Counted from the stretch's first letter, positions 10,237-42,571 are shown. The stretch: DNA of 57,910 bases from Candidatus Aenigmatarchaeota archaeon (GCA_043799385.1 JAZDNV010000031.1:1-57910); one strand, 5' to 3'. Program-made: numbers and translations. The notes: generated by a model from the sequence alone, not told the origin.

Positions 10237-10437
10237 GGGCGCGTAGCTCAGCCTGGTACAAACTTCTTTAAGAAAGAAGTTTGATCAAGAAAAACTGAAG
10301 AAGAATGCAGGAATGGAGCACCTGACTGATAATCAGGCGGTCGCCAGTTCAAAAAAGCCTTTTCTTTAAAAAAGAAAAGCCTTGGGAAAAGAAAGACTAA
10401 AAAATAAGGAAAGGCTTGGAACTTCTGGCCGCGCCCA
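10237..10437 (+). tRNA. tRNA-Ile(GAT) with two non-canonical introns (D-loop ~10259-10315; T-loop ~10354-10423)
   Basis: Removing both inserts gives GGGCGCG-TA-GCTC-AGCCTGGTA-GAGC-A-CCTGA-CT-GAT-AA-TCAGG-CGGTC-GCCAG-TTCAAAT-CTGGC-CGCGCCC-A, a perfect cloverleaf; exact junctions are approximate. Confidence 0.92.
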
Positions 10438-10456
10438 CTTTTTAATAATTAAGAAT

Positions 10457-11023
10457 TCAATATCGTTTTCTCTGCTTGCTGACGAAGATGTAGTGCTTTT
10501 CCTCGTCCTTCAATTCATCAAGAATTCTTCTGACTATTATCTTCACAGGGTCGGGAAATAGTCGCACCCTCTTTGACAAGTCCTGGAACGATTCAAAAGG
10601 TTTTTTTCTTTTTTCGTCCAGTATATCCGTCAGATGTTTTTTGCCAACGCCTGGCAGTAACTGAAATTGATGCATTCTCGGCGTGATTATGGTCCCGCTG
10701 TTGAAGAAATCAACGAATCTTTTCTCATTCGCCTTGACTATCTTTTCTACGACTTCGGCAAGAATGCTCATCGCAGCGTTTGTGAGGTTTTTGTAATCAA
10801 GCTGGCCCCTGATGAACTTCACATTGTCTCGTTTGCCGTCTCCGATGTAAACTTCCTCCTCGGCATTGAGCGAGACGTTCTCTCTTGGTACCACTTCGAG
10901 CAGCGTGAAGAAATTAGTGCCTATTATTTGCGCTATTGGCTCTGCGTGTCTCCTGTCAGCGTAGCCGCTTGGAAGGAAGTCTAGAACTATAGCATTTTCC
11001 TCTTTCATGGCCAACACCCGCAT
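10457..11023 (-). CDS. DUF655 family protein (RNA-binding, HhH)
   Basis: AIVLDFLP.G, AQ.IG..FTLLE, LLPGVGKKH, PFESF; conserved position after rpl21e-rpo4. Confidence 0.9.
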   Translation of the reverse strand: MRVLAMKEENAIVLDFLPSGYADRRHAEPIAQIIGTNFFTLLEVVPRENVSLNAEEEVYIGDGKRDNVKFIRGQLDYKNLTNAAMSILAEVVEKIVKANEKRFVDFFNSGTIITPRMHQFQLLPGVGKKHLTDILDEKRKKPFESFQDLSKRVRLFPDPVKIIVRRILDELKDEEKHYIFVSKQRKRY

Positions 11024-11350
11024 TTACATATACTTCTTTACTATGTCTATTATCTGCTTGATTTCTTCCTTCTTCAAATTCGTTCGTTCCTTGCTGAAAA
11101 GCATGTTCACTTCATCTTCAGTATCAGGCATCATGTTCAAAATCAATGATATATACCTTGATTTGAGTATCGCGATGCCGTTCAATTCCTCAATCATGGA
11201 CTTGAGCTTTGCCTGAGGTAATTTTGACACTTTTTCCAGGTATTCAAGGCATATCTTCTGCTCATAAACCAATTCCTTCTCGTCTTTCCTTTTTTCCATT
11301 ATATTCTTTGCATCGTGTATGCTAACTTCTTCTTCGTTCATTATTTCCAT
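11024..11350 (-). CDS. rpo4: DNA-directed RNA polymerase subunit Rpo4 (RpoF)
   Basis: HRDC-like pattern (YEQKICLEYL, MPDTEDEV) and synteny between rpl21e and DUF655. Confidence 0.85.
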   Translation of the reverse strand: MEIMNEEEVSIHDAKNIMEKRKDEKELVYEQKICLEYLEKVSKLPQAKLKSMIEELNGIAILKSRYISLILNMMPDTEDEVNMLFSKERTNLKKEEIKQIIDIVKKYM

Positions 11351-11351
11351 T

Positions 11352-11624
11352 CTATCGCCTCAGATGTTCTGGCTTAAGATATAATCTTTTCAGAGCCTTT
11401 TTATCCCTTACTTCGATTATGTATGTGTTCCCTTTCCTGTCAACGATTTTTCCCATCAAGCCCTGGAACTTAGGGTGCGGCATCTTGTGGGACGAGAAAT
11501 CAACATGAATCGTTTCACCGGTTTTGTATTCTTCCATGACATCGGCAATGCTCGCTTTCTTGCCGCTGAGCTTATGTCTCGAGCCCTTCATCTTTCCATA
11601 CGATTTTCTTACCATAACAATCAC
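11352..11624 (-). CDS. rpl21e: 50S ribosomal protein eL21
   Basis: KSYG...SRHKL, PHPKFQG..G, KPEHLR motifs. Confidence 0.9.
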   Translation of the reverse strand: MIVMVRKSYGKMKGSRHKLSGKKASIADVMEEYKTGETIHVDFSSHKMPHPKFQGLMGKIVDRKGNTYIIEVRDKKALKRLYLKPEHLRR

Positions 11625-11657
11625 AAATCATACATACATGATTATATTTAAATTCAT

Positions 11658-11749
11658 AGCTTTGTTTAAAAAATGATGGACATCTGTATGATGTCCATCG
11701 ATGGATAGGCTATCACGCCTACGTGATAGCCTAGTTTTTAAACAAAGCT
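11658..11749 (+). mobile_element. MITE copy 1 (15-bp TIR AGCTTTGTTTAAAAA, 9-bp TSD)
   Basis: Perfect TIRs; flanks TAAATTCAT / TAAATTCGT (8/9); two internal hairpins; near-identical to copy at 24521. Confidence 0.88.
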
Positions 11750-11776
11750 TAAATTCGTTGAAAGTGATGTTCAGTT

Positions 11777-12454
11777 ATGATAAAGGCAGTTCTCTTTGAT
11801 TTGGACCAAACGCTCATAGACTTCATAGGGATGAAAAAAATCGCCTCTAAAAAGGCTGCTTTTTCCATGGTCAAGGCCGGCCTGAAGATGGACCGCGGCG
11901 ATGCAGGCGAAATGCTTTTTGATTTCTACATCAAAGAAGGCATAGAATCGAATACCGCTTTCACGAGATTCCTTAAAAAGCACGGAAGCATGGACCACAA
12001 AATTCTTGCCGCAGGCATAAATGCATACACAAAGGCAAAATACGAGAGCATGAGAACTTACCCAAAAGCCAGAATCGTTCTAAGAAGACTAAAGAAAAAA
12101 GGGCTGAAGCTTGGCATAATAACCGACGCACCGAAGCTGAAGGCATGGCAGCGACTGCATATGATGGGTATGGAGGATTTTTTTGATATAGTTGTAGCGT
12201 TTGACGACACCAGAAAAAAGAAACCGCACGGTTCGCCGTTCAGCGTTGCGGTCACTAAACTAAAAATAGCTCCATGCGAAATATTGTTCGTTGGCGACCA
12301 GCCGCAGCGCGACATCAGGGGCGCAAAAAAGGCAGGAATGATTACCGTACTCGCAGGATACGGAATACAGGAAAAATTCAGGAAGCATCTGAAGAGATTT
12401 AAGCCGGATTACACGATAAATAGTCTTGAGGAACTAGTAAGGCTGATAAAATGA
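11777..12454 (+). CDS. HAD-superfamily hydrolase (TIGR02253-like)
   Basis: FDLDQTL motif I, KKKPH, VGD...DI.GAK.AGM. Confidence 0.9.
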   Translation: MIKAVLFDLDQTLIDFIGMKKIASKKAAFSMVKAGLKMDRGDAGEMLFDFYIKEGIESNTAFTRFLKKHGSMDHKILAAGINAYTKAKYESMRTYPKARIVLRRLKKKGLKLGIITDAPKLKAWQRLHMMGMEDFFDIVVAFDDTRKKKPHGSPFSVAVTKLKIAPCEILFVGDQPQRDIRGAKKAGMITVLAGYGIQEKFRKHLKRFKPDYTINSLEELVRLIK

Positions 12455-13911
12455 AATTGTCATTCTACGGAGGCGTAAATGAGATAGGAGGAAACAAATT
12501 TCTGCTAGAGGACAAAGAAACGAAAATATTTCTGGATTTTGGAAAAAACTTCATGATAGAGAACCGGTTTTTCGATTTCCCGTTAGTCCAGCCGTTCTAC
12601 ATACCTGACCTGGAAAAGACTGGCGCGATACCGGCTATTTCCAGTCTTTACCGAGATGCGAACGCTCCGTACAGAAAAGCCGGAACAAAGCCGGTCGACG
12701 GCATATTGTTAACGCATGCGCACATGGACCACTACGGCTATATACCATTGATTCGCGGCGACGTGCCAATCTTTCTAGGCAAAGCAACAGTCGATATTAT
12801 TAATATAAGGAGCGAGACATATGCGGCAACGTGGGGAAGCAAAACAGGGCACATAAAGCACGTTGAAACTTTTCACAGTAACGACCTGAAAGAATGCAAG
12901 AATATATCATTCAAGCCCGTGCATGTCGACCATTCGATACCCGCGTCGTATGCGTATATAATCTACGGAACGAAGACAGTCGCATACACGGGCGATCTGC
13001 GCCTGCACGGATACAAAAAAGAATTGACGAAAGACTTCATCGCTGAACTTGAAAAAAACGAAGTCGATGTATTGCTGTGCGAAGGCACGAACATCGTGTC
13101 AGAGCGGGATGATTTGTTCCTGAAAAATTTCGAGCAGGAGTTAATGCGAAGAAAGCAGAACCCGCCCAAGAGAACTTTATTACCGTGCAAATCAGAGGAC
13201 GAGGTTCTTGAAAAAATGAAGGGCATCGTGAATGACATGCGCGGCCTTGTCATAATAGAGACGAACCCTGCGGACATAGACAGGATAAGGACAATATTCA
13301 ATGTCGCATCGCTGACGAAAAGAAAGCTTGTCCTCACGCCGAAGCAATCGTACCTTGTCCACGCGCTGGAGGCGATTGGCGACATAAAAGAGCTGCCAAA
13401 ACTTAATGATTTTTGCCTTTATCTTGACCGCGTGAGAAAGAGGCAGGGCGAGGAGTGGGAAGAAGCTTTCAACGAGTCCTATCGCCAGGATTACCAGCGG
13501 ACTATGATAGATAAGTGCAAGGACGTTTTGCACGACGAAGAAGGCAGGGAAGAATTGCGCAAGAACGGTGATGAATATATAATCTGCACGGACAATGCGA
13601 CGAAGCGTTTCCAGGAACTGAAGCCCACGAGCGGAACGTTTCCGTGCAACTACATATTGAGCAAGTCAGAGCCGTTCACAGAGGAGATGATGATTACTTT
13701 CGATAAGCTTCTGAACTGGCTGATAATATCCGGAATAACCGAATACCACCAGCTGCACGTTTCAGGTCATGCATCTAAAGATGATTTGAAGAAAATAATC
13801 GACGCCGCTAACCCGAAGACGATTATTCCAATCCACACGGAGCACCCAGAGCTCTTCAAGAAATTCGGCAACGTCAGGATACCGACAATGAACGGCATGA
13901 TGGAGATATAA
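12451..13911 (+). CDS. MBL-fold / beta-CASP ribonuclease (RNase J-like)
   Basis: GG..EIGGN, THAHMDHYG, VDHSIP, YTGDLR, HVSGHA, PIHTEH. Confidence 0.85.
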   Translation: MKLSFYGGVNEIGGNKFLLEDKETKIFLDFGKNFMIENRFFDFPLVQPFYIPDLEKTGAIPAISSLYRDANAPYRKAGTKPVDGILLTHAHMDHYGYIPLIRGDVPIFLGKATVDIINIRSETYAATWGSKTGHIKHVETFHSNDLKECKNISFKPVHVDHSIPASYAYIIYGTKTVAYTGDLRLHGYKKELTKDFIAELEKNEVDVLLCEGTNIVSERDDLFLKNFEQELMRRKQNPPKRTLLPCKSEDEVLEKMKGIVNDMRGLVIIETNPADIDRIRTIFNVASLTKRKLVLTPKQSYLVHALEAIGDIKELPKLNDFCLYLDRVRKRQGEEWEEAFNESYRQDYQRTMIDKCKDVLHDEEGREELRKNGDEYIICTDNATKRFQELKPTSGTFPCNYILSKSEPFTEEMMITFDKLLNWLIISGITEYHQLHVSGHASKDDLKKIIDAANPKTIIPIHTEHPELFKKFGNVRIPTMNGMMEI

Positions 13912-13932
13912 TCTTTAAATTCTTTTCTATGT

Positions 13933-14271
13933 ATGTGTATCGATATGTCGATTAACAGACATATACCGGAAATCGAGCTTGGCTTATTGCAGATGCAGAT
14001 TCTGTGGCTGCTCAACAAGAAAGGAACGCACGGCTACGAGCTGATGAAGCGATTGAGCGACCTAAAGACTACGAAAATCACGCAGGGAACATTATACCCG
14101 ACGTTGCAGCGATTGGAGGAACTAAAGTTAATCAAGAGCAGGGAGGACGATCGCAGAAAGGTTTACATCCTCACTGACAAAGGCAAGAAAACGATGAAAG
14201 ATTCATGTGCTGATTTCTGCAAGACTTTTCATGGCATATTCGAGGATTTCATATGCGGAAAATGTAGGTGA
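13933..14271 (+). CDS. PadR-family transcriptional regulator with 4-Cys C-terminal tail
   Basis: IL.LL...HGYEL...GTLYPTLQRLEE...RRKVY.LT.KG; ends CADFCKTFHGIFEDFICGKCR. Confidence 0.88.
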   Translation: MCIDMSINRHIPEIELGLLQMQILWLLNKKGTHGYELMKRLSDLKTTKITQGTLYPTLQRLEELKLIKSREDDRRKVYILTDKGKKTMKDSCADFCKTFHGIFEDFICGKCR

Positions 14272-14276
14272 TAAAA

Positions 14277-14321
14277 ATGAAAAAGAATAAATGTTGCTGC
14301 TGCTGTTGCTGTAAGTGCTAG
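14277..14321 (+). CDS. Poly-cysteine micro-ORF MKKNKCCCCCCCKC (14 aa)
   Basis: AGGTGA SD 5 nt upstream; mixed TGT/TGC codons; stop TAG overlaps the AGGTGA SD of the next ORF; below ORF-track cutoff. Confidence 0.75.
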   Translation: MKKNKCCCCCCCKC

Positions 14322-14329
14322 GTGATTAA

Positions 14330-14500
14330 ATGAAAAAAGGAATCGGCGGACCTGTGGATATACTGCATAGCATAGTGATAATTATAGTAGCGCTGTTCAT
14401 GATAAAACACGGCATCGACGGCAACGGGTTAGGCCCGATGTTTGTCATATTGTTTGCTTTGTTTCTATTGATACTTGAAGTAGGTGCTATATTCCTATGA
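14330..14500 (+). CDS. Small 2-TM membrane protein (56 aa)
   Basis: SD AGGTGA upstream; two hydrophobic segments; ATGA overlap with iscS start. Confidence 0.7.
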   Translation: MKKGIGGPVDILHSIVIIIVALFMIKHGIDGNGLGPMFVILFALFLLILEVGAIFL

Positions 14501-15651
14501 GAAGAATCTATCTCGACCATGCGGCAACGACTCCAGTGAGAAAAGAAGTTGTTGAGGCAATGAAACCTTTTTTTGACAAGAAATACGGCAACGCATCCTC
14601 GCTTCATCGTTTTGGCCAGGATGCAAAAATTGCTTTGGACGAATCCAGGCACACGATTGCAAAGTTTCTAGGCGCTGGCGATAATGAGGTCATATTCACA
14701 TCAGGCGGCACTGAATCAGATAATCTAGCTTTGATTGGAACAGCTTTCGCAAATCGCAGCAAAGGAAAGCACATAGTAACATCAAAAATCGAGCACCATG
14801 CGGTTCTGCACACGTGCCAGTGGCTGGAAAAGAACGGTTTCGCGGTTACATATCTGCCGGTCGATAGATACGGTTTTGTTGACGCAGGCGACGTAGAGAA
14901 GTCGCTAAGGGACGATACGATTCTCGTGTCGATAATGCACGCGAACAACGAAATCGGGACGATAGAGCCAATAGAAGAAATCGGCAGAATCTGCAACGAG
15001 CACAACGTCTGCTTCCATACAGACGCTGTGCAGAGCTTCGGCAAGATACCGATAAACATGAAATACATCAATCTGCTATCTGTGTCAGGACATAAGGTTT
15101 ACGGGCCGAAGGGAATCGGATTGCTTTTTATCAGAAACGGAACAAGAATCGAACCAATACTTCATGGTGGTGGCCACGAAAAAAAGATGCGCTCGGGAAC
15201 AGAAAATATTCCAGGCATCGTAGGCTTCAGCAAGGCGGTTGAACTCGCTGGCAAAGAAATGAAATTAGAGTCAGGTCGAGAGATAAAACTGAGAGATAAG
15301 CTGATAAAGAACGTATTAAAAATTGATAACGCCTACCTGAGTGGCCATCCGAAAAAGCGGTTGCCGAACAATGCAGGGTTCTGGTTCAAATTCATCGAGG
15401 GCGAGTCGCTCGTCCTGCAGTTGGATAGTTATGGCATCGCAGCGTCCACAGGCAGCGCGTGCTCATCGAAATCGCTCGAACCTTCACATGTGTTAAAAGC
15501 AATCGGATTGAAGCATGAAGAATGCCATGGTTCGTTGCGGATGACGCTTGGCCGGCAAAACACTAGCAAGGATATAGATTATACGCTGGATGTTTTACCA
15601 AAAGTCGTTGAAAAGCTGAGGCAGATATCTCCGTTCAAAAAGAGGTGGTAA
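14497..15651 (+). CDS. iscS: Cysteine desulfurase, group I (IscS/NifS)
   Basis: YLDHAATTP, SGHKVYGPKG (PLP Lys), STGSACSS (catalytic Cys). Confidence 0.96.
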   Translation: MRRIYLDHAATTPVRKEVVEAMKPFFDKKYGNASSLHRFGQDAKIALDESRHTIAKFLGAGDNEVIFTSGGTESDNLALIGTAFANRSKGKHIVTSKIEHHAVLHTCQWLEKNGFAVTYLPVDRYGFVDAGDVEKSLRDDTILVSIMHANNEIGTIEPIEEIGRICNEHNVCFHTDAVQSFGKIPINMKYINLLSVSGHKVYGPKGIGLLFIRNGTRIEPILHGGGHEKKMRSGTENIPGIVGFSKAVELAGKEMKLESGREIKLRDKLIKNVLKIDNAYLSGHPKKRLPNNAGFWFKFIEGESLVLQLDSYGIAASTGSACSSKSLEPSHVLKAIGLKHEECHGSLRMTLGRQNTSKDIDYTLDVLPKVVEKLRQISPFKKRW

Positions 15652-16103
15652 TTATGTATTCAAAAAAAGTCATGAATCTTTTCACGAAACCGCACAATCT
15701 CGGAAGAATAGAGAACGCGGACGGCGTCGGAAAAGTAGGCAATATTATATGCGGAGACGTCATGCACCTTTACATAAAAATAAAGAATAATAAAATCGCT
15801 GACATAAAATTCGAGACATTCGGCTGCGCGGCAGCGATTGCGACGAGCAGCATGATCACTGATATTGCAAAAGGCAAGACGATAGAAGAGGCAATAAAAA
15901 TCGGCAGGAAGGACGTTGCTGACAATCTAGGCGGTCTGCCACCGATAAAGATGCACTGCTCGAACTTGGCAGCAGATGCATTGCACGAGGCAATATACGA
16001 CTACATGTCTAAAAATAAGATAAAAATACCTAAGGAGCTCCAGAAAGAGCATGAAAGGATAAAAAAAGAATTGTATACGACCGAGCACAAGTACATGCGT
16101 TAG
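15645..16103 (+). CDS. iscU: Fe-S cluster scaffold IscU/NifU-N
   Basis: GNIICGDVM, FGCAAAIATSS, LPPIKMHCS. Confidence 0.95.
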   Translation: MVIMYSKKVMNLFTKPHNLGRIENADGVGKVGNIICGDVMHLYIKIKNNKIADIKFETFGCAAAIATSSMITDIAKGKTIEEAIKIGRKDVADNLGGLPPIKMHCSNLAADALHEAIYDYMSKNKIKIPKELQKEHERIKKELYTTEHKYMR

Positions 16104-17020
16104 TCCTTCATCTTTGATAAGTAATCAGCTGCGGCTAAAGCGGCTTTCGCTCCTTCGCCTGCTGCCACGATTATCTGCTTTTCAGGTATGTCAGTCACAT
16201 CGCCAGCCGCGAATATGCCCGGAACGCTGGTCATGTTCTCCTTGAACATCTCCGTGCATCGCGAAATCATTATCTCGTTCCTCTTGTTCTTTTTCACGAT
16301 TTTTGCGAATTCGACATTTGGTATTGTTCCAATTTCGATGAAGACGCCAGAAACCGCAATTTTTTCTCGTCTGCCTTTTTTTTCTATTTCTACAGCACTT
16401 ACGAATTTGTCGCCAATTATCTTGGTTATGTTGGTTTCGTTCAGTATCTTTACTTTGTCATTTTTTTTCGCTTTTTCAATCATAACGTTATCGGCGGTTA
16501 ATTTTTTCCATCTGTTAAGAAGATAAATCTTGTTCGCGATTTTTGTCAACTGCAGAACTGCGTCCAATGCCGAATTTCCGCTGCCAACGACCGCTACGTT
16601 TTTTTCAGTGAATAATGGCGCATCGCACGTTGCGCAGTGGGTTACGCCACGGCCGAGGAATTCTTTTTCGCCTGATATCTCTAATCTTCTAGGCTTTTTT
16701 CCCGAAGCGATTACCAGCGTTTTGCATTCGTACTTTCCTTTATCGGTTACTACAGTTATTATTTTGCCCTTTTTCTTTATGTCGACGACTTCATCATTCC
16801 TGATTTTTATTTTATAATACTCCAAGTGTTCCTGGAACTTCTTTACAAGTTCTGCGCCTGATACAAGATGATAGCCAAGGTAATTTTCGACATCAGAAGA
16901 AAGCAATGCCTGCCCGCCGACATCCTTGGATATAAGCAGAAAATCAATTTTTTTTCTTGCAAGGTAGATTGATGCGGTTAATCCTGCCGGTCCTGCTCCT
17001 ATTATTATCGCATCATGCAT
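16100..17020 (-). CDS. trxB: Thioredoxin reductase-like FAD oxidoreductase (TrxB/AhpF-C type; start moved to ATG 17020)
   Basis: IIIGAGPAGL, HCATCDAP redox pair, VGSGNSA, FAAGDVT. Confidence 0.9.
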   Translation of the reverse strand: MHDAIIIGAGPAGLTASIYLARKKIDFLLISKDVGGQALLSSDVENYLGYHLVSGAELVKKFQEHLEYYKIKIRNDEVVDIKKKGKIITVVTDKGKYECKTLVIASGKKPRRLEISGEKEFLGRGVTHCATCDAPLFTEKNVAVVGSGNSALDAVLQLTKIANKIYLLNRWKKLTADNVMIEKAKKNDKVKILNETNITKIIGDKFVSAVEIEKKGRREKIAVSGVFIEIGTIPNVEFAKIVKKNKRNEIMISRCTEMFKENMTSVPGIFAAGDVTDIPEKQIIVAAGEGAKAALAAADYLSKMKD

Positions 17021-17021
17021 A

Positions 17022-17459
17022 CTAACCACAAGTTCCGCAGCCGTCAGTACAGTTGCAACTTCCATACGTAGTTGTTGCGTTGCAATCAGCACACGTGCAC
17101 ACCTGCTCAACGCCAAATATACAACCTTCGGGGTCCGAAGGGTCGCAAGAGCCATGCACAACGATGTTATATACCCCGTTTGCTGCAAAAACCAGGCTCA
17201 GGATTAATGTAATCATGAAAAACCAAGAGATTGGCTCAAAATATTTGTACGTGAATTTTGCTAATTTCTGGCTCCTCATCATAAGCTTGCTGATTATCTT
17301 TGATTTCATCTTTTGGTCGAATTGCGTGTCACACTTCCTGAGCGTCATTCTTCTAAAAATGCATCGCGACGCTTCCTTGAAATAATTCCTATATTTTACA
17401 GAGAACAACCCTAGGAATCCGAATACTATCATGGCAACTACGCATATCATGTGAATCAC
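17022..17459 (-). CDS. Hypothetical membrane protein with Cys-rich C-terminus
   Basis: Two hydrophobic segments, C-terminal C..C..CTCADC..CNC..CGTC; tightly coupled between sufS and trxB. Confidence 0.7.
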   Translation of the reverse strand: MIHMICVVAMIVFGFLGLFSVKYRNYFKEASRCIFRRMTLRKCDTQFDQKMKSKIISKLMMRSQKLAKFTYKYFEPISWFFMITLILSLVFAANGVYNIVVHGSCDPSDPEGCIFGVEQVCTCADCNATTTYGSCNCTDGCGTCG

Positions 17460-24521: not shown

Positions 24522-24619
24522 GCTTTGTTTAAAAACTAGGCTATCATCCTGCTATTAGCGATGATAGCCTATCCATCGATGGACATCATACAGATGTCCA
24601 TCACTTTTTAAACAAAGCT
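24521..24619 (-). mobile_element. MITE copy 2
   Basis: Perfect 15-bp TIRs; perfect 9-bp TSD AGATTTCTG (24512-24520 / 24620-24628); reverse complement of copy 1 except one base and the loop of hairpin 2. Confidence 0.92.
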
Positions 24620-34145: not shown

Positions 34146-34146
34146 C

Positions 34147-34895: not shown

Positions 34896-37067
34896 ATGGC
34901 AAAAGAAAAAATGGAATTGATTCAGGAACTCATGCACAAGCCTGACCATATTCGCAATATGGGCATAGCTGCGCATATCGACCATGGCAAGACCACGCTT
35001 TCCGACAACCTGCTTGCAGGTGCAGGCATGACTTCCGAAGAGCTTGCTGGTACGCAGCTTTTCATGGATTCCGACAAGCAGGAGCAGGAACGAGGAATAA
35101 CGATATTCTCTGCCAATGCGAGCATGGTCCACAACGTTGACGGAAAAGACTATCTCGTCAACCTGATTGATACGCCAGGTCACGTCGATTTCGGTGGCGA
35201 CGTCACGCGCGCAATGCGCGCAGTTGACGGCGCGGTTATCGTTGCATGCGCAGTCGAGGGCGTCATGCCTCAGACAGAGACAGTGATAAGGCAGGCGTTG
35301 CACGAGCGAGTCAAGCCGGTTCTATTCATAAATAAGGTTGACCGTTTGATAAGGGAATTGAAGTTCACGCCGGAGCAGATGCAGGAGAGATTTTTCAAGA
35401 TAATAACCCATGTCAACAGGCTGATACAAAAATACGCGGAGAAGGAGTTTGCTGAAAAATGGCTGGTGAACGTGGAGAACGGTTCGGTCGCTTTTGGCTC
35501 AGCATACAGGAAATGGGCTATTTCTGCCGCATACATGAAAAAGGAGAAGATATCCTTCAAGGATATCATCGATTACTGCTCTACGGAACGCGACAAAGAA
35601 TTATCAAAGCGCGTTCCTTTGCACAAAGTGCTTCTGAATATGGTTACGCATCATCTGCCGAGTCCTGCGGAGTCGCAGAAATACAGGATACCTAAAATCT
35701 GGCACGGAGACATGGAATCAGCTGATGCAAAAGACATGATTAACATGAATGAGAACGGACCGATGATTGCGATAATAACAAAGGTTATCCCTGATCCGCA
35801 TGCAGGGTTGGTCGCGACCGCTCGTCTATTTTCTGGCGTCATAAAGAGGGGCCAGGAGATAAAGATGATAGGCCAGCACCGGACTGCACGCATACAACAG
35901 GTATCGATTTATAAAGGACCGCAAAGAATTACCATGGAAGAAATACCAGCAGGAAATATTGTAGGTATCGTCGGCTTGCCAGACGCATTTTCCGGAGAGA
36001 CGATATCAGAGAAAGATATAGAGCCGTTCGAGGCGATAAAACATCTTTTCGAGCCGGTCGTCACGAAAAGCGTTGAATGCCCACCGAATGATTTACCAAA
36101 GATGATAATGTTTTTGAAGCAGATAGCAAGGGAAGACCCTACGTTCAACATCAAAATAAACGAGGAAACCGGTGAATACCTGATTTCAGGATTAGGCGAG
36201 TTGCACATAGACGCAAAAATCGAGCGTCCGCTTCGCGATAAGGGAATAGAAATCAGAACGTCCCAACCGCTCGTCATCTACCGCGAGACCGTGCAGTCGC
36301 TAAGTCCGGAAGTCGAAGGAAAATCGTCCAACAAGCACAACCGCTTCTTCATCAAGGTCGAGCCTCTGGAGCAAAGCGTTTTTCAGGCATTTGCCGAAGG
36401 AAAGATAGAGGAAAATAACATAAGGAAGGTTTTGAAGCAGGTCATACAAAAACTAGTTGAGTACGGCATGAGCAGAGACGAAGCAAAGAAGTTGGTAGAT
36501 ATCCATAATAGGAATATGCTTCTGGACGTTTCTAAAGGAGCGCAATATCTGAACGAAACGATTGAACTAGTTACAGAGGGTTTCAGAAACGTAATGGATT
36601 CCGGACCTCTATGTGGTGAGCCGTGCACATCGATAAAGGTCAAATTGACAGACGCAAAGCTGCACGAAGACGCGATTCATCGCGGGCCGGCACAGGTATT
36701 GCCTGCAATAAACGATGCAATCAAATCTGCGATGTTCCACGCAAGACCGACATTGCTCGAACCGATACAAACAATACGCATAGACGCGCCAGAGGAATTA
36801 ATAAGCGATGCTATGAACGTAATACAGAACAGGCGCGGTCAAATAATTAATACTGAAGTCGAATTAGGCACTGCAAAAGTCCTTGCTAAATTGCCGGTCG
36901 CCGAGATGTTTGGCTTTGAAGCAATACTCAAGTCTGCAACAGGCGGACGCGGTTTCTACTCGCTAATCGATGTGACGTTTGAAAGGATTCCTGAGGAGTT
37001 GAAGAACAACGTAGTGATGAAAATCCGCGAGAGAAAGGGTTTGTCGAAGGATATTGCTGGCATTTAG
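34896..37067 (+). CDS. fusA: Translation elongation factor aEF-2
   Basis: AHIDHGKTT, RGITI, DTPGHVDF, NKVD; diphthamide loop LHEDAIHRGPAQ intact. Confidence 0.99.
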   Translation: MAKEKMELIQELMHKPDHIRNMGIAAHIDHGKTTLSDNLLAGAGMTSEELAGTQLFMDSDKQEQERGITIFSANASMVHNVDGKDYLVNLIDTPGHVDFGGDVTRAMRAVDGAVIVACAVEGVMPQTETVIRQALHERVKPVLFINKVDRLIRELKFTPEQMQERFFKIITHVNRLIQKYAEKEFAEKWLVNVENGSVAFGSAYRKWAISAAYMKKEKISFKDIIDYCSTERDKELSKRVPLHKVLLNMVTHHLPSPAESQKYRIPKIWHGDMESADAKDMINMNENGPMIAIITKVIPDPHAGLVATARLFSGVIKRGQEIKMIGQHRTARIQQVSIYKGPQRITMEEIPAGNIVGIVGLPDAFSGETISEKDIEPFEAIKHLFEPVVTKSVECPPNDLPKMIMFLKQIAREDPTFNIKINEETGEYLISGLGELHIDAKIERPLRDKGIEIRTSQPLVIYRETVQSLSPEVEGKSSNKHNRFFIKVEPLEQSVFQAFAEGKIEENNIRKVLKQVIQKLVEYGMSRDEAKKLVDIHNRNMLLDVSKGAQYLNETIELVTEGFRNVMDSGPLCGEPCTSIKVKLTDAKLHEDAIHRGPAQVLPAINDAIKSAMFHARPTLLEPIQTIRIDAPEELISDAMNVIQNRRGQIINTEVELGTAKVLAKLPVAEMFGFEAILKSATGGRGFYSLIDVTFERIPEELKNNVVMKIRERKGLSKDIAGI

Positions 37068-37690
37068 ATTATCTTCCCCAATTCTGACAATGAATTTAAA
37101 ATCAACTCCGGGTTTTCTTTTTCAAGAATCGCTTTTGCATGATAGCCAGTGCAAACTGCAGCTGATTTCACTCCTGCTAATTTAGCGGACCTGATGTCAT
37201 AAATCATGTCGCCTACGTATAATGCAGAAGCGGAATCAATGCGAAAATGCCTGCAGACATTCAAAAGGCCTTCCACCTTGTTTCTGGAACTGCCGGAGAT
37301 GAAATCTATCAGCTGGATTAAATTGTAGTGCTCGGCTTCTCTCCTGACGTTTTTTGCAGGATGGCTGCTCAATATCGCAATTTTCTTTCCTTTGTTTTTC
37401 AGATTCTGAAGAATTTCATGTGCGTCAGGATAAACCTGTGGAGCGATGCCTGAGTCATGGACTTCTGTGTAGAGTTTTTCATACAGCAAAAACAGTTCAT
37501 CATGGTTTTTGTCGATGCCAATGCTGTCAAAAAAGTCCAGAATGGTCATCTTCACTTTCGGCAGCCACTCTTCAAAAGAAAGCACGGGTTTGTTAAAATG
37601 CTTCATCAGCCTGATGTTTGTTTCATAAACTGGTTTCCTGTCGTCGCTGATAGTTCCGCTCCAGTCAAAGATGAAGAGTTCTATTTCCAT
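37064..37690 (-). CDS. HAD-family phosphatase (Gph-like)
   Basis: FDWSGTISD, YVGD..YDI.SA..AGV; start moved to MEIELF. Confidence 0.85.
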   Translation of the reverse strand: MEIELFIFDWSGTISDDRKPVYETNIRLMKHFNKPVLSFEEWLPKVKMTILDFFDSIGIDKNHDELFLLYEKLYTEVHDSGIAPQVYPDAHEILQNLKNKGKKIAILSSHPAKNVRREAEHYNLIQLIDFISGSSRNKVEGLLNVCRHFRIDSASALYVGDMIYDIRSAKLAGVKSAAVCTGYHAKAILEKENPELILNSLSELGKII

Positions 37691-38334
37691 TTCAATTCCC
37701 TCAACGCGTCGTTTGCAACCCATTTCGCTGATTTTGAATTGATTTTCTGAATCTCTTTTGCAGTTTTTATAGCCGCTTTTTTCAGTTTCGCATTCCGTTT
37801 GCCAATCTGTCGTAGAGACCAGTTGACGGCTTTCTTTACGAAGTTTCTTTCATCAGTCGAACATATTTTTATTATAGGCAGGAACTTCAGGAATTTTTCA
37901 TTCCCTGCTTTTTTGTCATGCACGGCTAGGCATGCCATGAGCGCAAAGCCTGCGCGTTTTTCAAACTCCTCGGTTCTTGACGACCATTCAACTGCCTTGT
38001 CGTACGCAAAAGCTGTCTTGTCAAAGAGGTTCATGCATACCTGGTCGCAGACATCCCAGGAATCGAAATCCCTTATCCACGAATCCATCTGCTTCTCCGT
38101 TACTAATGCAGTGTCATCAATCATTCCTGCAAGAATTCGCGCTTCGTGTATTCCGGATGACCATAATCGTTGAGCAAGAGCATGGTCTTTTCCAAGCTCT
38201 TTGGCCATCTTCCGCAAAATCGGCATCGATATTCCGTACGCATTTTTAGGTTTGATGCCGAATCGAGCCATGCCCTCGACGTTCTTAGGGTTAGAAAGAG
38301 ATTCCAGTTTTTTGAGAACTTCCTTATGCTGCAT
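37681..38334 (-). CDS. DNA alkylation repair protein (AlkD-like HEAT repeat)
   Basis: LWSSG.HEARILA, SWDVCD, R.FVKKAVNW.LRQIGKR. Confidence 0.88.
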   Translation of the reverse strand: MQHKEVLKKLESLSNPKNVEGMARFGIKPKNAYGISMPILRKMAKELGKDHALAQRLWSSGIHEARILAGMIDDTALVTEKQMDSWIRDFDSWDVCDQVCMNLFDKTAFAYDKAVEWSSRTEEFEKRAGFALMACLAVHDKKAGNEKFLKFLPIIKICSTDERNFVKKAVNWSLRQIGKRNAKLKKAAIKTAKEIQKINSKSAKWVANDALRELKWK

Positions 38335-38765
38335 TACCAAGGCCTTCCGTAATCTTTCTTTTCCTCCCTAAGCTTTTCATGTATTTCATTTAGGTCCTTT
38401 TCGCTGAGCTCGACTCGCCTGTAGGAAAAGATTACTTTGTCATTTTCAAATCTGGGTATTATGTGGAAATGTATGTGGTTGACTATTTGGCCGGAAATGC
38501 GGCCGTTGTTTTGTATTATGTTCATGCTATCGGTACCCATCTTTATCCTGACGTGCTCTGCTATCTTCTTCACGACCACTATCATGTCCTGCAGCTCTTT
38601 TTCGCTGACGTCAAAAATTGCATCGCTATGCTTCTTTGGTATCACCAGTACGTGGCCCGGATTCGCGGGATTTATGTCCAGGAACGCCAGAACCGAGTTA
38701 TCTTCATAAACCTTTTTTGAGGGAATCTCGCCTTTCACAATCTTGCAAAATATGCAGTCATTCAT
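38334..38765 (-). CDS. HIT family nucleotide hydrolase
   Basis: CIFCKI, FLDINP..PGH.LVIPK, HIHFHIIPR. Confidence 0.95.
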   Translation of the reverse strand: MNDCIFCKIVKGEIPSKKVYEDNSVLAFLDINPANPGHVLVIPKKHSDAIFDVSEKELQDMIVVVKKIAEHVRIKMGTDSMNIIQNNGRISGQIVNHIHFHIIPRFENDKVIFSYRRVELSEKDLNEIHEKLREEKKDYGRPW

Positions 38766-39049
38766 GCTATCGCCACTGATAATATCATGGTTATGGATAT
38801 AATCAGGGCAATGGTTATAAAGATTGCCGTGACGAGACTAAGAATTCTTTCATATTTTTTGAAGCGCAGTGAAATGAACAACAATACTAATGGCAACAGA
38901 ATCAGAGCCAGGATGAGAAAGAAAAACGGGTTTGTGTACAAACCAAAGCTTATCGCAGGAACTATAAAGTATGCAGCGTCGACCATCAAAAAAGCCACGT
39001 AAACGATGACTGCGAATAGAAGATACATCTGCATAAATCTAATTGTCAC
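38762..39049 (-). CDS. Hypothetical membrane protein
   Basis: About 3 hydrophobic segments; 4-bp overlap with the HIT gene. Confidence 0.55.
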   Translation of the reverse strand: MTIRFMQMYLLFAVIVYVAFLMVDAAYFIVPAISFGLYTNPFFFLILALILLPLVLLFISLRFKKYERILSLVTAIFITIALIISITMILSVAIA

Positions 39050-39068
39050 CGCAGTTTTTAAATAAACT

Positions 39069-39443
39069 TTACTTCTTCTTGTACGCGGCTGCTATAGGAA
39101 CGACCAACGCCAGCAGGTAGCTGAGCATTATCGACCAGGACGTGAAATAGTTCCACCCCTGCGTGCTAGCGAAGCCGTAGACCATTACTGGCACTTCAAT
39201 CACAAAGGTCACTACCGCAAAAACGACGCCAAGCATCAAGCCCTCGTTTATCGGCTTAACGATTTTCATCGACTTGAAATAGTAGTACTTTGCCACGATG
39301 AAGGTCAGCAATGCTCCTGACACCAGCATCGCTACGCTGAACGCATCGCCGGTCATCTTCGCGACGAACATCAGTATGCTCGCCCACAAGAAAATCAGCG
39401 CATACAAGATAACTGCGGATATCAGCGCTTTCTTTATGTTCAT
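39069..39443 (-). CDS. Hypothetical 4-TM membrane protein
   Basis: Four hydrophobic helices; directly downstream of tRNA-Trp. Confidence 0.65.
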   Translation of the reverse strand: MNIKKALISAVILYALIFLWASILMFVAKMTGDAFSVAMLVSGALLTFIVAKYYYFKSMKIVKPINEGLMLGVVFAVVTFVIEVPVMVYGFASTQGWNYFTSWSIMLSYLLALVVPIAAAYKKK

Positions 39444-39484
39444 GAGAATAATTATGCAAGGCGTTATTTAAAGAATTTATGATA

Positions 39485-39697
39485 TGGGGCCAGGAGGATT
39501 CGAACCCCCGTCAACGCGTTTCTTCAGAAGAGTAGAAACCTACGGTTTCTCTCTTTCTAATCTCATTTCCCTTTTCTACTTTTTCATCGCCTACTAAAGG
39601 CTCAAGTCTCCAGTTCTTTGGGGTAAACCCTAGACCTTTCTTCTTAAGAAAGGGCTTGGGACTGGAGCGCGCCGTGATACCACTACACCATGGCCCC
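39485..39697 (-). tRNA. tRNA-Trp(CCA) with 142-nt canonical 37/38 intron (39520-39661)
   Basis: GGGGCCA/TGGCCCC acceptor; GCGCG-CT-CCA-G|intron|A-CGCGT; GGGGG-TTCGAAT-CCTCC T-arm. Confidence 0.93.
39520..39661 (-). ncRNA. Probable intron-encoded box C/D guide RNA (Cm34 of tRNA-Trp)
   Basis: ACTGGAG antisense to CTCCAGT followed by AC-TTGA; the +5 rule lands on C34; C'-like GCGATGA and terminal CTGA; 5' box C not recognisable. Confidence 0.55.
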
Positions 39698-39761
39698 GTT
39701 GTATAGATAAATACAGGGTTAGAAATTAAAAGGCTTTATTCTTTTCGGAGATAGTTTCTGC

Positions 39762-40943
39762 ATGGCTGACAAAAGAGGATACGTAGGTCTGAAAACAGCA
39801 CAGCCGCTTAGCAGGACGTATGGAATAACGCCTGCAGGAGAAGGGTTGCGACCCGTTTACTCGTTCAGCAGGTACGCAGAAGGGCTTTTCGCTACCATAC
39901 CACCAAAAGAAAAGGAGAAGATGCTACCGCAATTCCAGCAGCATCTGGTCTCTCTGCTTGAAAAAGGAGAGCTGAAAGCGCAGTTTCAAATCCCTTTTCC
40001 GTTCTTTTTGCAGTACCAAATGCTTGAAGGAATCAAAGAGGCCACGAAAACCAAGACACAGGAAGGCACGACAAAGCTTTGGTACGCTGCAAGGGATGTC
40101 GAAGGAGAGGCAGACGACTATAAGGCAGAAGGCAAGGTGCCTTCAAGGCGCTCTGGCCGTGGGTCTGACGTACTCAAGAGATGGGATGTGAAGCATAGAT
40201 ACGGTAAGTTTGCATGGTGCGGTTCCACTGGCTGCAAGCACGATGCTGAAAACATGATAGTATGCTTTCATAATGCAGAGCTGGCTTTTAAACTCGGCAA
40301 ACCGACACCGTTTGTAATAAGCTCCCTAAAGTCAATGGAGGTTGCCTACAGGAAGTATGTTCTCGGAGAGGATATGAACGACATTGATTACAGGGAGATG
40401 GACAGGAGAGAAAATTACAATCAGGCATACGTGAGTAAAATAGAAAGGGGCAAGATGATTTTTGTAGCACCGTTATCAAGATTCAAGAAAATAAGAATCA
40501 AGCAGGAAAAGGTCGCTGCTAAAAACAGGTGGGTAAAGGCGCAAAGGAGCCTTGTAAACGATTACCTTAGGCCGAATCTCGAACAGCGCGGATTCAAGGA
40601 GGTTGGATATGCATTTGAGGGAAGGGGAACACGCTGGGAAACTGTTTGCAGGACCTATCAGAACGGCAATGTAATATACCGGCCCATAATAAGGGCTGAC
40701 ATGCCGCCTGTAATCTCCCGCTGGGTGCTTACAGATAAGTCAGAGTTCTCCCCTGTGCGGCTGACAGACAATATGTTTGCCAATATCGGAGACCCTGTGA
40801 TGGAGGTAGATGACTCAACAAGGAGGTGGGGAGAGCATACATTTTTCATCCCTGGCTCTGAAATGCCTGATGGCTTACCCAAGGTAGAGATGCTTGAGAC
40901 GTGGAAGCAAGATTACCGAAAGCTTCTGGAGAAGAGCAAGTAA
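39762..40943 (+). CDS. Hypothetical protein, possible SWIM-like Zn site
   Basis: 393-aa ORF; C-x4-C...C-x-H (WCGSTGCKH...VCFH); no family recognised. Confidence 0.7.
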   Translation: MADKRGYVGLKTAQPLSRTYGITPAGEGLRPVYSFSRYAEGLFATIPPKEKEKMLPQFQQHLVSLLEKGELKAQFQIPFPFFLQYQMLEGIKEATKTKTQEGTTKLWYAARDVEGEADDYKAEGKVPSRRSGRGSDVLKRWDVKHRYGKFAWCGSTGCKHDAENMIVCFHNAELAFKLGKPTPFVISSLKSMEVAYRKYVLGEDMNDIDYREMDRRENYNQAYVSKIERGKMIFVAPLSRFKKIRIKQEKVAAKNRWVKAQRSLVNDYLRPNLEQRGFKEVGYAFEGRGTRWETVCRTYQNGNVIYRPIIRADMPPVISRWVLTDKSEFSPVRLTDNMFANIGDPVMEVDDSTRRWGEHTFFIPGSEMPDGLPKVEMLETWKQDYRKLLEKSK

Positions 40944-41089
40944 AACTACCCTAACTAAGGTCAGCTGCTGCGCGAGTTAGGCCTTGGCAGCTAGTTCGGC
41001 AGAAGCCCGCCAGGAGCTGTATTTAAGTCTTTCAAAGTGGCGAAAACCTTAAATACAGGGATTTCTATAGTTAGTTTAGGTGAATAAAA

Positions 41090-41449
41090 ATGGAAATGAC
41101 AAAGATAGGAGAATACCTATTCTTACTAGGAGCAATAGTAGCAGTACTTACAGGATTGGGATCCAGTTATGTCGTAGGCGCTACAGGAGCTTGGATTGTA
41201 GCATTGCTAGTATTGATAGGTATTGTCGTAGGTTTTCTGAACGTTACTGAGAAAGAGTTCACAGCATTCCTGGTTGCGGCTATCGCGCTGGGAATCGCAG
41301 GCACAGCAGCTTTCACAGCAATCGACGCAGTCTTATCACCTATAGGAACGATGATAACAGCGATTGTGAAGAATCTTGCAATACTTGTCGCACCTGCTGC
41401 AGTTATTGTAGCAGTCAAGCAAGTAATGGCAATGGCTAGCAAGAAATAA
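41090..41449 (+). CDS. Small hydrophobic membrane protein (LNVxxxExxxFL family)
   Basis: SD AGGTGA, TATA-like upstream, poly-T terminator; four Ala/Gly-rich TM helices. Confidence 0.8.
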   Translation: MEMTKIGEYLFLLGAIVAVLTGLGSSYVVGATGAWIVALLVLIGIVVGFLNVTEKEFTAFLVAAIALGIAGTAAFTAIDAVLSPIGTMITAIVKNLAILVAPAAVIVAVKQVMAMASKK

Positions 41450-41490
41450 ACTCTTTCTGACTTTTTTTTCTTTTATTTTATTATTTACTA
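41450..41490 (+). terminator. Oligo-T archaeal terminator
   Basis: CTCTTTCTGACTTTTTTTTCTTTTATTTTATTATTT directly after the stop. Confidence 0.5.
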
Positions 41491-41494
41491 CGCT

Positions 41495-41818
41495 TTATGC
41501 TCTCGGTTCGATAACCAGTTCGCAGGACTTTCCTGTGTCCTTTTTCATAAGCATTAACGAGGCATCGACAACGCCCTTCAGAAAATTGTGGATTTCAACG
41601 TCCTTTCCGTTGCCTTTTGTCTTGAGCTCAAAGCCGAAGTACGCTTTGTTGTCGCTGCCTTCAGTGTACGCTACCTCAAAAGAAGGGGTGGTACGCGTTG
41701 CATCGTCAAAGACAAAATCAACCGTAGTGCCTATAGTTTTTGGTATTATGCCCTTCAAGTACGCTCTTACCTCAGGGTCACCACTTTTTCCTATAATACA
41801 ATAGTCCGGCATACGCAC
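41495..41818 (-). CDS. Hypothetical protein
   Basis: 107-aa ORF with globular-type composition. Confidence 0.55.
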   Translation of the reverse strand: MRMPDYCIIGKSGDPEVRAYLKGIIPKTIGTTVDFVFDDATRTTPSFEVAYTEGSDNKAYFGFELKTKGNGKDVEIHNFLKGVVDASLMLMKKDTGKSCELVIEPRA

Positions 41819-41857
41819 ACTATAGTCAAAACCGTCTTAAAACCTTCAGAAACAGCG

Positions 41858-42037
41858 TCAGAGGTGCGGAGGCGGTATCAGCTCCTTGCGCGTCTCCTGG
41901 ATCTTCTTGCCGCATGGGCATTTCCAGGTTATATAGAATATCGTGTTGTTCATCTCCTTCTCTTCTATGGTCGCCACAGGAACAAAAGCCTGCTTGCAGC
42001 TAGCGCATTTTGGCGCTTCAGTTACCTTTATCTCCAT
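41858..42037 (-). CDS. Small zinc-ribbon protein (59 aa)
   Basis: MEIKVTEAPKCASCKQAF...WKCPCGKKIQETRKELIPPPHL; CxxC...CxC; below track cutoff. Confidence 0.7.
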   Translation of the reverse strand: MEIKVTEAPKCASCKQAFVPVATIEEKEMNNTIFYITWKCPCGKKIQETRKELIPPPHL

Positions 42038-42082
42038 AGGTGAATATTTGCCGCGATTCTATAAAAAGCTTGAAGAAGCAGC

Positions 42083-42180
42083 AGCTTTATTTAAAAAGTC
42101 GGCTATCATCTGCTTCTAGCGATGATAGCCTATCCGTCAATGGGCATCATATAGATGCCCATTACTTTTTAAACAAAGCT
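42083..42180 (-). mobile_element. MITE copy 3
   Basis: TIRs with one mismatch; perfect 9-bp TSD AGAAGCAGC (42074-42082 / 42181-42189); compensatory changes in hairpin 1. Confidence 0.9.
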
Positions 42181-42196
42181 AGAAGCAGCAAGGAGC

Positions 42197-42457
42197 TCAA
42201 AAGATATAGTTACCCAGCAGGAAACCTATGGTCATGTACACAGCCATCAGGATCAGGCAGTGCAAGTGCCTGCCGGCAACTATCTTCAGGGCAACGCCAA
42301 GGCAAACGACAGCTGGCAAAAAGAATGAAAGGCTAATGGACGCACCAGCAACCATGCCGATGGCTATGTCAAGAATCATCCTCAATTGACCGTGAATAAC
42401 CGTCTGGATAACAAACCCAAAGACTGCCGCAGCCAGATACAATGCAATCGCATCCAT
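42197..42457 (-). CDS. Hypothetical small membrane protein
   Basis: 86 aa, 3 hydrophobic segments; starts 8 nt after tRNA-Thr 3' end. Confidence 0.6.
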   Translation of the reverse strand: MDAIALYLAAAVFGFVIQTVIHGQLRMILDIAIGMVAGASISLSFFLPAVVCLGVALKIVAGRHLHCLILMAVYMTIGFLLGNYIF

Positions 42458-42464
42458 TGAATCA

Positions 42465-42571
42465 AGCCCCGACCGAGGATTGAACTCGGGACCTTCACCT
42501 TACCAAGGTGACGCTCTACCAATCTCACAAGCCCTTTCTTCTAAGAAAGGGATGTACTGAGCCATCGGGGC
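42465..42571 (-). tRNA. tRNA-Thr(GGT) with ~33-nt D-loop intron (~42523-42555)
   Basis: GCCCCGA/TCGGGGC acceptor; TCACC-TT-GGT-AA-GGTGA; CCGAG-TTCAATC-CTCGG; insert between GCTCAGT and TGGTAGAGC. Confidence 0.92.

Follow-up and report, generated by a model that had tools for sequence, protein, structure and literature searches.

Recurrence of a hairpin cassette in predicted tRNA introns of an Aenigmatarchaeota genome and a possible account of its spread

The arrival of endonuclease-type introns in archaeal tRNA genes is an open question. The "intron transposition" of the Thermoproteales was inferred without a mechanism, and a 2026 preprint on Asgard archaea identified no general arrival route for introns (10.64898/2026.10.13.758758). 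The question is raised in concrete form by a 57,910-nucleotide stretch of DNA from a Candidatus Aenigmatarchaeota archaeon (GCA_043799385.1, JAZDNV010000031.1:1-57910; the window), in which four similar pyrimidine/purine hairpins lie within predicted introns of the genes for tRNA-Ile(GAT), tRNA-Trp(CCA) and tRNA-Thr(GGT). A sequence-only reading of the window had quoted these hairpins, all of which were recovered in place, and had interpreted them as copies of one selfish element. The window is contig C21 of a 786-kb genome in 31 contigs that is 91% complete. The elongation factor 2 (EF-2) encoded in the window is 67-76% identical to that of Candidatus Aenigmatarchaeota metagenome-assembled genomes from groundwater, and therefore the organism is a DPANN archaeon.

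The four hairpins are probably copies of a cassette that occurs throughout this lineage (Aenigmatarchaeota, DPANN). The hairpin would serve as the intron-side helix at the 5' splice site of segments that are removed by endonuclease and that have been copied among stable-RNA genes. Splicing, the helper role of the hairpin, any triplex and the means of copying are inferred.

Recurrence and anatomy of the cassette

Intervening sequences in the tRNA genes of this genome were collected in a catalogue of 46, and 20 of these form one similarity cluster that holds all four window introns. The cluster spans about 15 tRNA genes and three intron positions (D-loop, 37/38 and T-loop 59/60). Similarity across isotypes and positions reaches z values of up to 18-28 against mononucleotide shuffles, which was the comparison that the sequence-only reading had proposed as the test of its claim. 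A stricter null compares each intron with the reversed sequence of another intron, such that composition and purine/pyrimidine runs are kept. In all-against-all local alignment, 30 intron pairs score over the maximum of this null, and the proposal that one cassette recurs at different positions in introns of unrelated tRNAs is borne out by the cluster.

The hairpins are also concentrated in tRNA genes, given that 18 of the 34 perfect hairpins with a pyrimidine (Y) arm followed by a purine (R) arm fall within this 0.68% of the genome sequence (binomial p = 2e-30). Significant nhmmer profile matches (E < 0.01) are confined to tRNA introns in the genome. About 4-6 cassette copies lie outside introns in this genome, all of them beside RNA genes or weak-scoring. 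In the window, the motif CTTTCTT-N2-3-AAGAAAG occurs exactly twice, at 39636 and 42534, and is absent from 100 shuffles. Both sites lie in tRNA introns, as the sequence-only reading had noted, and their minus-strand reading gives the quoted Trp and Thr transcript strings; once the Thr transcript is reverse-complemented, it shares CAAGCCCTTTCTT with the Trp transcript. For the Ile gene, zero occurrences of CAAACTTCTTTAAGAAAGAAGTTTG (10259-10283), AAGCCTTTTCTTTAAAAAAGAAAAGCCTTGG (10355-10385) and AAAGGCTTGG (10410-10419) are expected in dinucleotide-preserving shuffles of the window. The four window hairpins are far from chance.

The cassette is about 40-45 nt long and is composed of a short lower stem of mixed sequence, an upper stem of 7-9 bp whose 5' arm is pyrimidine and whose 3' arm is purine, a short turn and a purine tail. 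Type A is laid out as AAGCC, Y arm, loop, R arm, a CCTTGG-like turn and the purine tail. It is found in six T-loop introns, with variants in the Thr-TGT, Trp, Arg-TCT and Thr-GGT introns. Of the 8 tRNAs of the genome that have a T-loop 59/60 intron, 6 carry the cassette there. In class B, the hairpin is followed by (A/T)ATCAAGAAAA. Class B occurs in the D-loop introns of Ile, Lys-TTT and Ser-GGA and in the 37/38 introns of Gly-CCC, Gly-TCC, Cys, Leu-TAA, Arg-TCG and Met, and by nhmmer, members of the class are present in eight of the genome's introns. The Ile D-loop intron has a near-identical counterpart in the Met 37/38 intron (CAAACTTTCTTAGAAAGAAAGTTTGACCAAAGAAGG). Placement of the hairpin within the intron is constant, with a start 1-9 nt from the 5' end in 17 of 17 cases (Fisher combined p = 1e-5 against uniform placement). 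This is the place required for the intron-side helix, h', of the bulge-helix-bulge (BHB) motif.

Similar hairpins might also result from convergence, if unrelated introns of biased composition had independently evolved A/U-rich pyrimidine/purine hairpins and any stable hairpin beside the bulge sufficed. The stems are indeed of low complexity, and other introns of the genome use different hairpins as h'. However, the parts outside the stem are conserved as well, including the AAGCC or CAAGCC flanks, the CCTTGG turn and the ATCAAGAAAA and GGAAAGAAA tails, and the scores exceed a null that preserves complexity. Hairpins with the pyrimidine arm first outnumber those with the purine arm first by 17 to 2 for TTTCTT..AAGAAA and by 7 to 2 for TTCTTT..AAAGAA. 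The cassette unit also recurs, with both of its ends, in the signal recognition particle (SRP) RNA gene of a relative, designated G012. Convergence is disfavoured by this evidence and is highly improbable as the source of the family.

Junctions and orientation of the window introns

The cassettes are contained in segments bounded by BHB-like junctions (Table 1). In keeping with the neutralisation by splicing that the sequence-only reading had supposed, predicted removal of these segments restores normal tRNAs with a canonical cloverleaf, and the extra length is confined to the D, anticodon and T loops.

Table 1. Coordinates of tRNA genes, predicted introns and cassette parts in the window
Feature	Position	Strand	Details
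tRNA-Ala(GGC) gene	8764-8847	+	Cloverleaf fit; D-loop insert of only about 11-12 nt
tRNA-Ile(GAT) gene	10237-10437	+	Exons 10237-10257, 10314-10353 and 10424-10436; discriminator base 10437
Ile intron 1, D-loop, 56 nt	10258-10313	+	Predicted; junctions 10257/10258 and 10313/10314
Class-B cassette of Ile intron 1	10259-10295	+	Hairpin CAAACTTCTTT-aag-AAAGAAGTTTG (10259-10283), purine tail ATCAAGAAAAAC
Ile intron 2, T-loop 59/60, 70 nt	10354-10423	+	Predicted
Type-A cassette of Ile intron 2	10355-10394	+	Flank AAGC, then the four parts below
Y arm CTTTTCTTT	10359-10367	+	Followed by loop AAA
R arm AAAGAAAAG	10371-10379	+	
Turn CCTTGG	10380-10385	+	
Mirror tail GAAAAGAAA	10386-10394	+	Mirror match 9/9, direct match 7/9
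Distal arm AAGGAAAGGCTT of Ile intron 2	10406-10417	+	Pairs with AAGCCTTTTCTT, closing the intron helix beside the splice sites
tRNA-Trp(CCA) gene	39485-39697	-	Cloverleaf fit 39486-39697
Trp intron, 37/38, 142 nt	39520-39661	-	Predicted; splice sites assumed from canonical position
Trp cassette	39613-39658	-	Flank CAAGC, hairpin CCTTTCTT-aag-AAGAAAGG (39635-39653), mini-hairpin GGGTTTACCC, tail CCAAAGAAC (39613-39621)
tRNA-Thr(GGT) gene	42465-42571	-	Exons 42571-42556 and 42521-42466; cloverleaf fit 42466-42571
Thr D-loop intron, 34 nt	42522-42555	-	Predicted; almost bare hairpin CCCTTTCTT-ag-AAGAAAGGG (42532-42551), 3' flank CTTG
tRNA-Tyr(GTA) gene	44887-45008		Cloverleaf fit; sole Rfam tRNA match of the window at gathering threshold

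The Ile gene carries two predicted introns, each with its own cassette. When its full-length precursor is folded for minimum free energy (MFE), all four tRNA stems (acceptor, D, anticodon and T) are formed. In this fold, the junction of intron 1 consists of a CCUG/CAGG helix and the 3-nt bulges GU/A and AA/U, and it adjoins the cassette hairpin, whose stem is a perfect 11 bp. The D-loop predicted after splicing, AGCCTGGTTGGAGC, is identical to that of the Ile orthologs of two relatives, G009 and G017, where it is uninterrupted. A homologous intron is found at the same site of tRNA-Lys(TTT) on contig C14. The 3' end of intron 2 (GGCTT-GGAA-CT) has two pairing partners, the AAGCC at the 5' end and the TTC of the T-loop, and the 12-bp pairing of the distal arm is the one chosen by the MFE fold. 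The junction of intron 2 is relaxed, with UUC/GAA plus a mismatch. Removal of intron 2 leaves the T-loop TTCAAAT, as in orthologs that are uninterrupted there.

The junction of the Thr intron, judged by fold and sequence, has a perfect CUCA/UGAG helix with two 3-nt bulges. The Trp cassette is of a sub-type (hairpin...CCCAAAGAAC) that is also found at one locus of a relative (L023). The 3' part of the Trp intron (39520-39600, minus strand) was considered as a C/D-box small RNA, given a box C-like GCGATGA and a terminal CTGA that are reminiscent of euryarchaeal tRNA-Trp introns. This candidate was set aside, since it lacks a clear D' box and has neither a guide complementary to tRNA-Trp nor an Rfam match.

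In the proposed mechanism, a cassette at the extreme 5' end of a BHB intron would supply h' next to the bulge of the 5' splice site. A short and site-specific 3' end of the intron (CAGG, GGAA or UGAG) would pair with the exon to form the central 4-bp helix. The segment would then be excised by a single alpha-type splicing endonuclease and the exons ligated. The copies would be related by descent and would have spread into many stable-RNA genes at differing positions, which would amount to intron transposition in the Thermoproteales sense. Since the copies have become fixed in genomes, and since filled and empty sites are found, copying would take place on DNA.

The genome has one EndA gene, on contig C11 (18471-18743 region), with a single PF01974 match (93 bits) in an open reading frame of about 219 aa and a single alpha unit of about 190-219 aa. 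An alpha-type EndA with an insert accompanies heavy disruption of tRNA genes in DPANN archaea (PMC5829648), and the single alpha EndA is consistent with that published pattern. Relaxed BHB motifs (hBH, HBh', BHL) are cleaved by archaeal EndA of broad specificity (PMC3239211, PMC5829648). The introns described here resemble such relaxed introns in their D-loop, T-loop and stem sites, and in having one good 4-bp helix, 3-nt bulges and an intron-side hairpin. They differ in that the sequence of h' is arbitrary in relaxed motifs, whereas here it belongs to a conserved sequence family with a tail.

Opposite orientations of the hairpins had been taken by the sequence-only reading to indicate a DNA-level step. 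The argument fails because the palindrome of Y arm and R arm, which is nearly perfect, reads alike on both strands. The Trp and Thr hairpins align with a score of 20 in the same sense, in which the loops also match, and with a score of 18 as reverse complements. All 18 tRNA-intron copies of the genome that can be oriented by their tails are in sense; the Thr-GGT cassette is tailless and therefore gives no orientation. Both flanks, CAAGCC...GGCTTG, belong to the family consensus and are complete in the Thr-TGT and T-loop copies, with the 5' flank kept in Trp and the 3' flank kept in Thr-GGT. Runs of T5-T6 are archaeal terminators, and the sense bias could stem from such runs, which antisense copies would put in the precursor. 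A true inverted pair is found in the relative G003, in which an intron of the large subunit (LSU) rRNA has a cassette at each end, in opposite orientations, and in this genome two hairpins proximal to tRNA-Leu promoters are antisense.

The mirror tail and copies in relatives

Purine arm and purine tail are mirror images, rather than direct or inverted repeats of each other, and they co-vary. Examples of arm and tail are AAAGAAAAG...GAAAAGAAA, AGAAAGAAAA...AAAAGAAAGA, GAGAAAG...GAAAGAG and AAGAAAG...GAAAGAA. The test of symmetry covered 82 non-redundant hairpins whose arms are asymmetric, taken from this genome and loci of relatives, and looked for a copy of the arm at most 30 nt downstream. 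A perfect mirror copy is present for 28 of the 82, against 4 with a perfect direct copy, and the mirror tails span 17 distinct arm sequences. When tails were permuted among copies, the mean was 7.5 mirror tails and the maximum 15 in 2000 trials.

Homopurine mirror symmetry is a signature of like-with-like pairing of a third strand, as in the purine-motif triplex and H-DNA. The mirror tail is compatible with a triplex by this symmetry, and the cassette is a candidate for a natural triplex of the purine type. On the antisense strand, the sequence would form a U.A-U / C+.G-C triplex. As in H-DNA and purine-motif triplex motifs (PMC11667243), the arm, turn and tail make up a homopurine mirror repeat in which A faces A and G faces G. 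The cassette differs from those motifs in its arms of only 7-10 nt and in its coupling to a same-strand inverted repeat, and it is known here as a symmetry of sequence. The ATCAAGAAAA tail was also considered as a promoter, a transcription factor B recognition element or a terminator, each read as its reverse complement; these roles leave the mirror covariation unexplained, and they are possible for copies outside introns.

The cassette is widespread among relatives. BLAST with the Ile precursor gives matches in 29 of 41 relatives, from several families within the order, with up to 11 matches per genome and 83-97% identity over about 40 nt, and most of the matches fall on intron hairpins rather than exons. 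Its contexts include introns in the T-loop, anticodon loop and D-loop of tRNAs and introns of small subunit and LSU rRNA. Other copies lie inside one SRP RNA gene, just downstream of SRP RNA and RNase P RNA genes, and in the short spacers that separate co-oriented protein genes, with several spacer copies in G003 and G012. Infernal was applied to 40 loci of relatives and detected rRNA, SRP RNA, RNase P RNA and few multi-intron tRNAs, so that about half of the loci have no secure class; the cloverleaf fit was spurious on these loci and was therefore not used to classify them. Open-frame analysis suggests that many of the loci without an Infernal class are gene spacers.

Intron presence was compared among relatives, as the sequence-only reading had recommended, and two sites that are filled in G012 and empty in its congener G041 show gain of the cassette as a unit. 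The SRP RNA gene of G012 (L052/L098, contig C1 122889-123309) has an 85-nt insert that is exactly absent from G041. The insert starts with AAGCC-hairpin-CCTTGG and ends with AAAAGGCTGGGGAAT, which are both ends of the T-loop intron family, and it is a candidate endonuclease-type intron. The SRP RNA genes of other genera (G003, G014) appear to be free of an insert at this site, as judged by the lengths of their Rfam matches. Similarly, one gene spacer of G012 measures 79 nt and opens with a class-B cassette, while its counterpart in G041 is 7 nt long. No clean empty site was found when one G012 tRNA locus (L053) was compared with its congeners.

Orthologs of tRNA-Ile vary as well. The G009 gene has one unrelated intron near 9/10, and the G003 gene has D-loop and T-loop introns with different cassette content. 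The cassette tail in the D-loop intron of the G003 gene (L081) consists of four tandem copies of TGCACGGAAAGAAAAAGAA. In G017 (L084, contig C40, about 5270), the tRNA-Ile(GAT) gene is circularly permuted, with the 3' half (CTGATAA...CCAGCCCA) followed by CTCAC (5 nt) and the 5' half (GGGCTGG...GAGCATCCGA), and the sequences flanking the two halves on the outside are complementary. Thermofilum and algae are known to have permuted tRNA genes, and we know of none in DPANN archaea.

Such conservation might instead mark a selected cis-acting module of RNA or DNA, in which a compact and possibly triple-stranded hairpin with its mirror tail marks or insulates introns, trailers and operon spacers, and the copies persist by function. 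The role of the module could be that of a portable splice-site helix, a signal for processing, a stability element or a terminator. Selection of this kind is favored by the mirror covariation over so many arm variants, by the constant position at the 5' end of introns, and by stretches of about 40 nt that keep 88-97% identity across genera whose EF-2 shares only about 70%. Copies directly follow the 3' ends of 5S rRNA, SRP RNA and RNase P RNA, and spacer copies are co-oriented with the flanking genes. Copies outside introns have uninterrupted T5-T7 runs, like archaeal terminators, while T runs are no longer than 4 in most intron copies, with the Cys intron (T6) as an exception. However, many introns of the same genome have no cassette and must still splice, orthologous tRNAs of relatives lack it, and all-RNA purine-motif triplexes were reportedly found to be unstable (by Semerad and Maher, in 1994). 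A role as a cis-acting module is a serious possibility, although we hold it to be less than an even chance.

The selfish element of the sequence-only reading was a tiny DNA element that is confined to tRNA genes, can insert in both orientations and is merely tolerated because splicing removes it. Recurrence at varied positions in unrelated tRNAs and the filled and empty sites of relatives would be expected of it, and gain as a unit is among the parts of the proposal that hold. It would also fit the inverted cassettes at the ends of the G003 LSU rRNA intron and four cassette-like hairpins beside RNA genes of this genome, two of them antisense to an adjacent tRNA-Leu. Specificity for tRNA genes does not hold, given the copies in rRNA and SRP RNA, next to RNase P RNA and in spacers of relatives. 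The evidence from orientation is an artefact of the palindrome, and the cassette always sits at the 5' end of the intron rather than at random. Conservation across families, together with mirror covariation, implies selection on structure and makes a purely selfish nature doubtful, and no Y1 transposase was found in the 91%-complete genome. As originally framed, the selfish element is unlikely.

Dissemination of an intron and cassette family accommodates both kinds of evidence. Conservation, mirror covariation and fixed position argue for selection on structure, filled and empty sites argue for ongoing copying, and the two are compatible. Several points weigh against dissemination. No transposase-like gene was found, and Y1/IS200 (PF01797) is unmatched in the genome at its 91% completeness. 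The filled and empty pairs are all in relatives rather than in this genome. Several junctions are relaxed, as with the T-loop central helix of 3 bp plus a mismatch, and the boundaries of the catalogued introns are approximate outside the window. Low sequence complexity inflates similarity scores, which was addressed by the reversed-sequence null. Deep conservation and structural covariation could also reflect retention of the cassette for its function instead of spread.

The closest precedent is the intron transposition of the Thermoproteales. Transposed families of BHB-type tRNA introns are described for these archaea, where multiple introns per gene are common and gain is ascribed to a DNA-level process of unidentified mechanism (Fujishima et al. 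2010, Mol Biol Evol 27:2233, in the summaries of PMC4033280 and PMC4090602). In both cases, introns are similar across isoacceptors and positions beyond chance, and are gained or lost between relatives. The family described here is an analogue rather than a member, since its host is a DPANN archaeon of the Aenigmatarchaeota with a single alpha-type EndA gene. Its shared unit is a defined hairpin and mirror-tail cassette fixed at the 5' end of the intron. It is also found in rRNA and SRP RNA, beside 5S rRNA and RNase P RNA genes and in gene spacers, and has clean filled and empty sites between congeners.

The cassette also resembles bacterial repetitive extragenic palindromic (REP) sequences and miniature inverted-repeat transposable elements (MITEs), which are short palindromic repeats, present in multiple copies in transcribed non-coding spacers, co-oriented with genes and polymorphic between close relatives. 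It differs in that no REP-associated tyrosine (Y1) transposase was found, in that copies here are almost solely in tRNA introns, and in its mirror purine tail, which has no REP counterpart. No published description was found of the cassette or of tRNA introns of Aenigmatarchaeota. The moving unit is recognizable, structurally defined, fixed in its place in the intron and able to cross classes of RNA gene, and so gives a concrete handle on the spread of introns. Because the cassette can be recognized in its fixed place, with clean filled and empty sites between congeners, the question of intron arrival becomes testable.

We tentatively suggest that the cassette could act as an intron seed. A purine third strand would stiffen the hairpin into an intramolecular triple helix, either in RNA or in DNA that is single-stranded or supercoiled, and the hairpin would then serve as a ready-made intron-side helix. 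Landing near a few complementary bases in any stable-RNA gene, it would make the site cleavable by an endonuclease of broad specificity. If so, new introns would be created in tRNA, rRNA and SRP RNA, which would explain the proliferation of tRNA introns in archaea.

The tRNA gene set and other repeats

The tRNA set of the genome comes to about 41 genes, the majority of which are interrupted by 1-3 intervening sequences. Intron sites are in the D-loop, at 30/31, 31/32, 37/38 and 40/41, in the variable arm and at T-loop 59/60. The genes were found by a strict filter on acceptor and T-arm followed by an intron-tolerant cloverleaf fit, after less strict scans for acceptor and T-arm had proved far too noisy. 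In the window, the fit gives five tRNA genes (Ala-GGC, Ile-GAT, Trp-CCA, Thr-GGT and Tyr-GTA). ARAGORN with default settings finds zero tRNAs in the window and in intron mode finds three, with Thr miscalled as Ser. An Rfam scan of the window at the gathering threshold detects no family other than tRNA, and tRNA-Ala(GGC) is above threshold with no standard tool (RF00005 E = 0.35). Because standard tools recover 0-1 of the five window genes, tRNA sets of DPANN archaea are badly under-called. On contig C13 (3878-4129, minus strand), two tandem tRNA-Pro genes have homologous introns in the 3' strand of the anticodon stem, at about 40/41, and the anticodon of one reads AGG, an unusual one in archaea.

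The hairpin ATGACGNN...NNCGTC(C)AT forms a second recurring module and is nested in the loop of the D-loop cassette of tRNA-Lys-TTT (C14 20006-20217). It is also found in the tRNA-Ser-TGA intron (C10 34885-35048) and in the variable-arm introns of two Leu genes (C25 66949-67063 and C10 36625-36802), and a similar module, TGACGCAC-gga-GTGCGTCA, lies in the 5' leader of the window tRNA-Ile at 10208-10226. A third recurring module in the genome is GCGTTGACGGAAA.

T/A hairpins that resemble the cassette, with ATCAAAAA tails, occur outside introns at C14 20385-20411 and 20512-20539, C10 36602-36624 and C20 4855-4878. One of these directly follows 5S rRNA, and two lie in antisense against the 5' ends of tRNA-Leu genes. 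Another, located before tRNA-Asp, contains the palindromic TTTTTATAAAAAA about 28 nt upstream of that gene, and this palindrome is likely a TATA box.

Another abundant repeat, TTTGCACAAAAA-(GATGGACATC-tgtat-GATGTCCATC)-gatggt-(AGGCTATCGTC-gcaaa-GACGATAGCCT)-ggTTTTTGTGCAAA, is a double hairpin within an outer inverted repeat. It is found in the window at 11675-11733, 24578-24602, 42139-42163 and 42634-42656 and at more than 20 sites on other contigs. The repeat often adjoins tRNA genes, as it does immediately upstream of tRNA-Thr, and could be a REP- or MITE-like element or a terminator.

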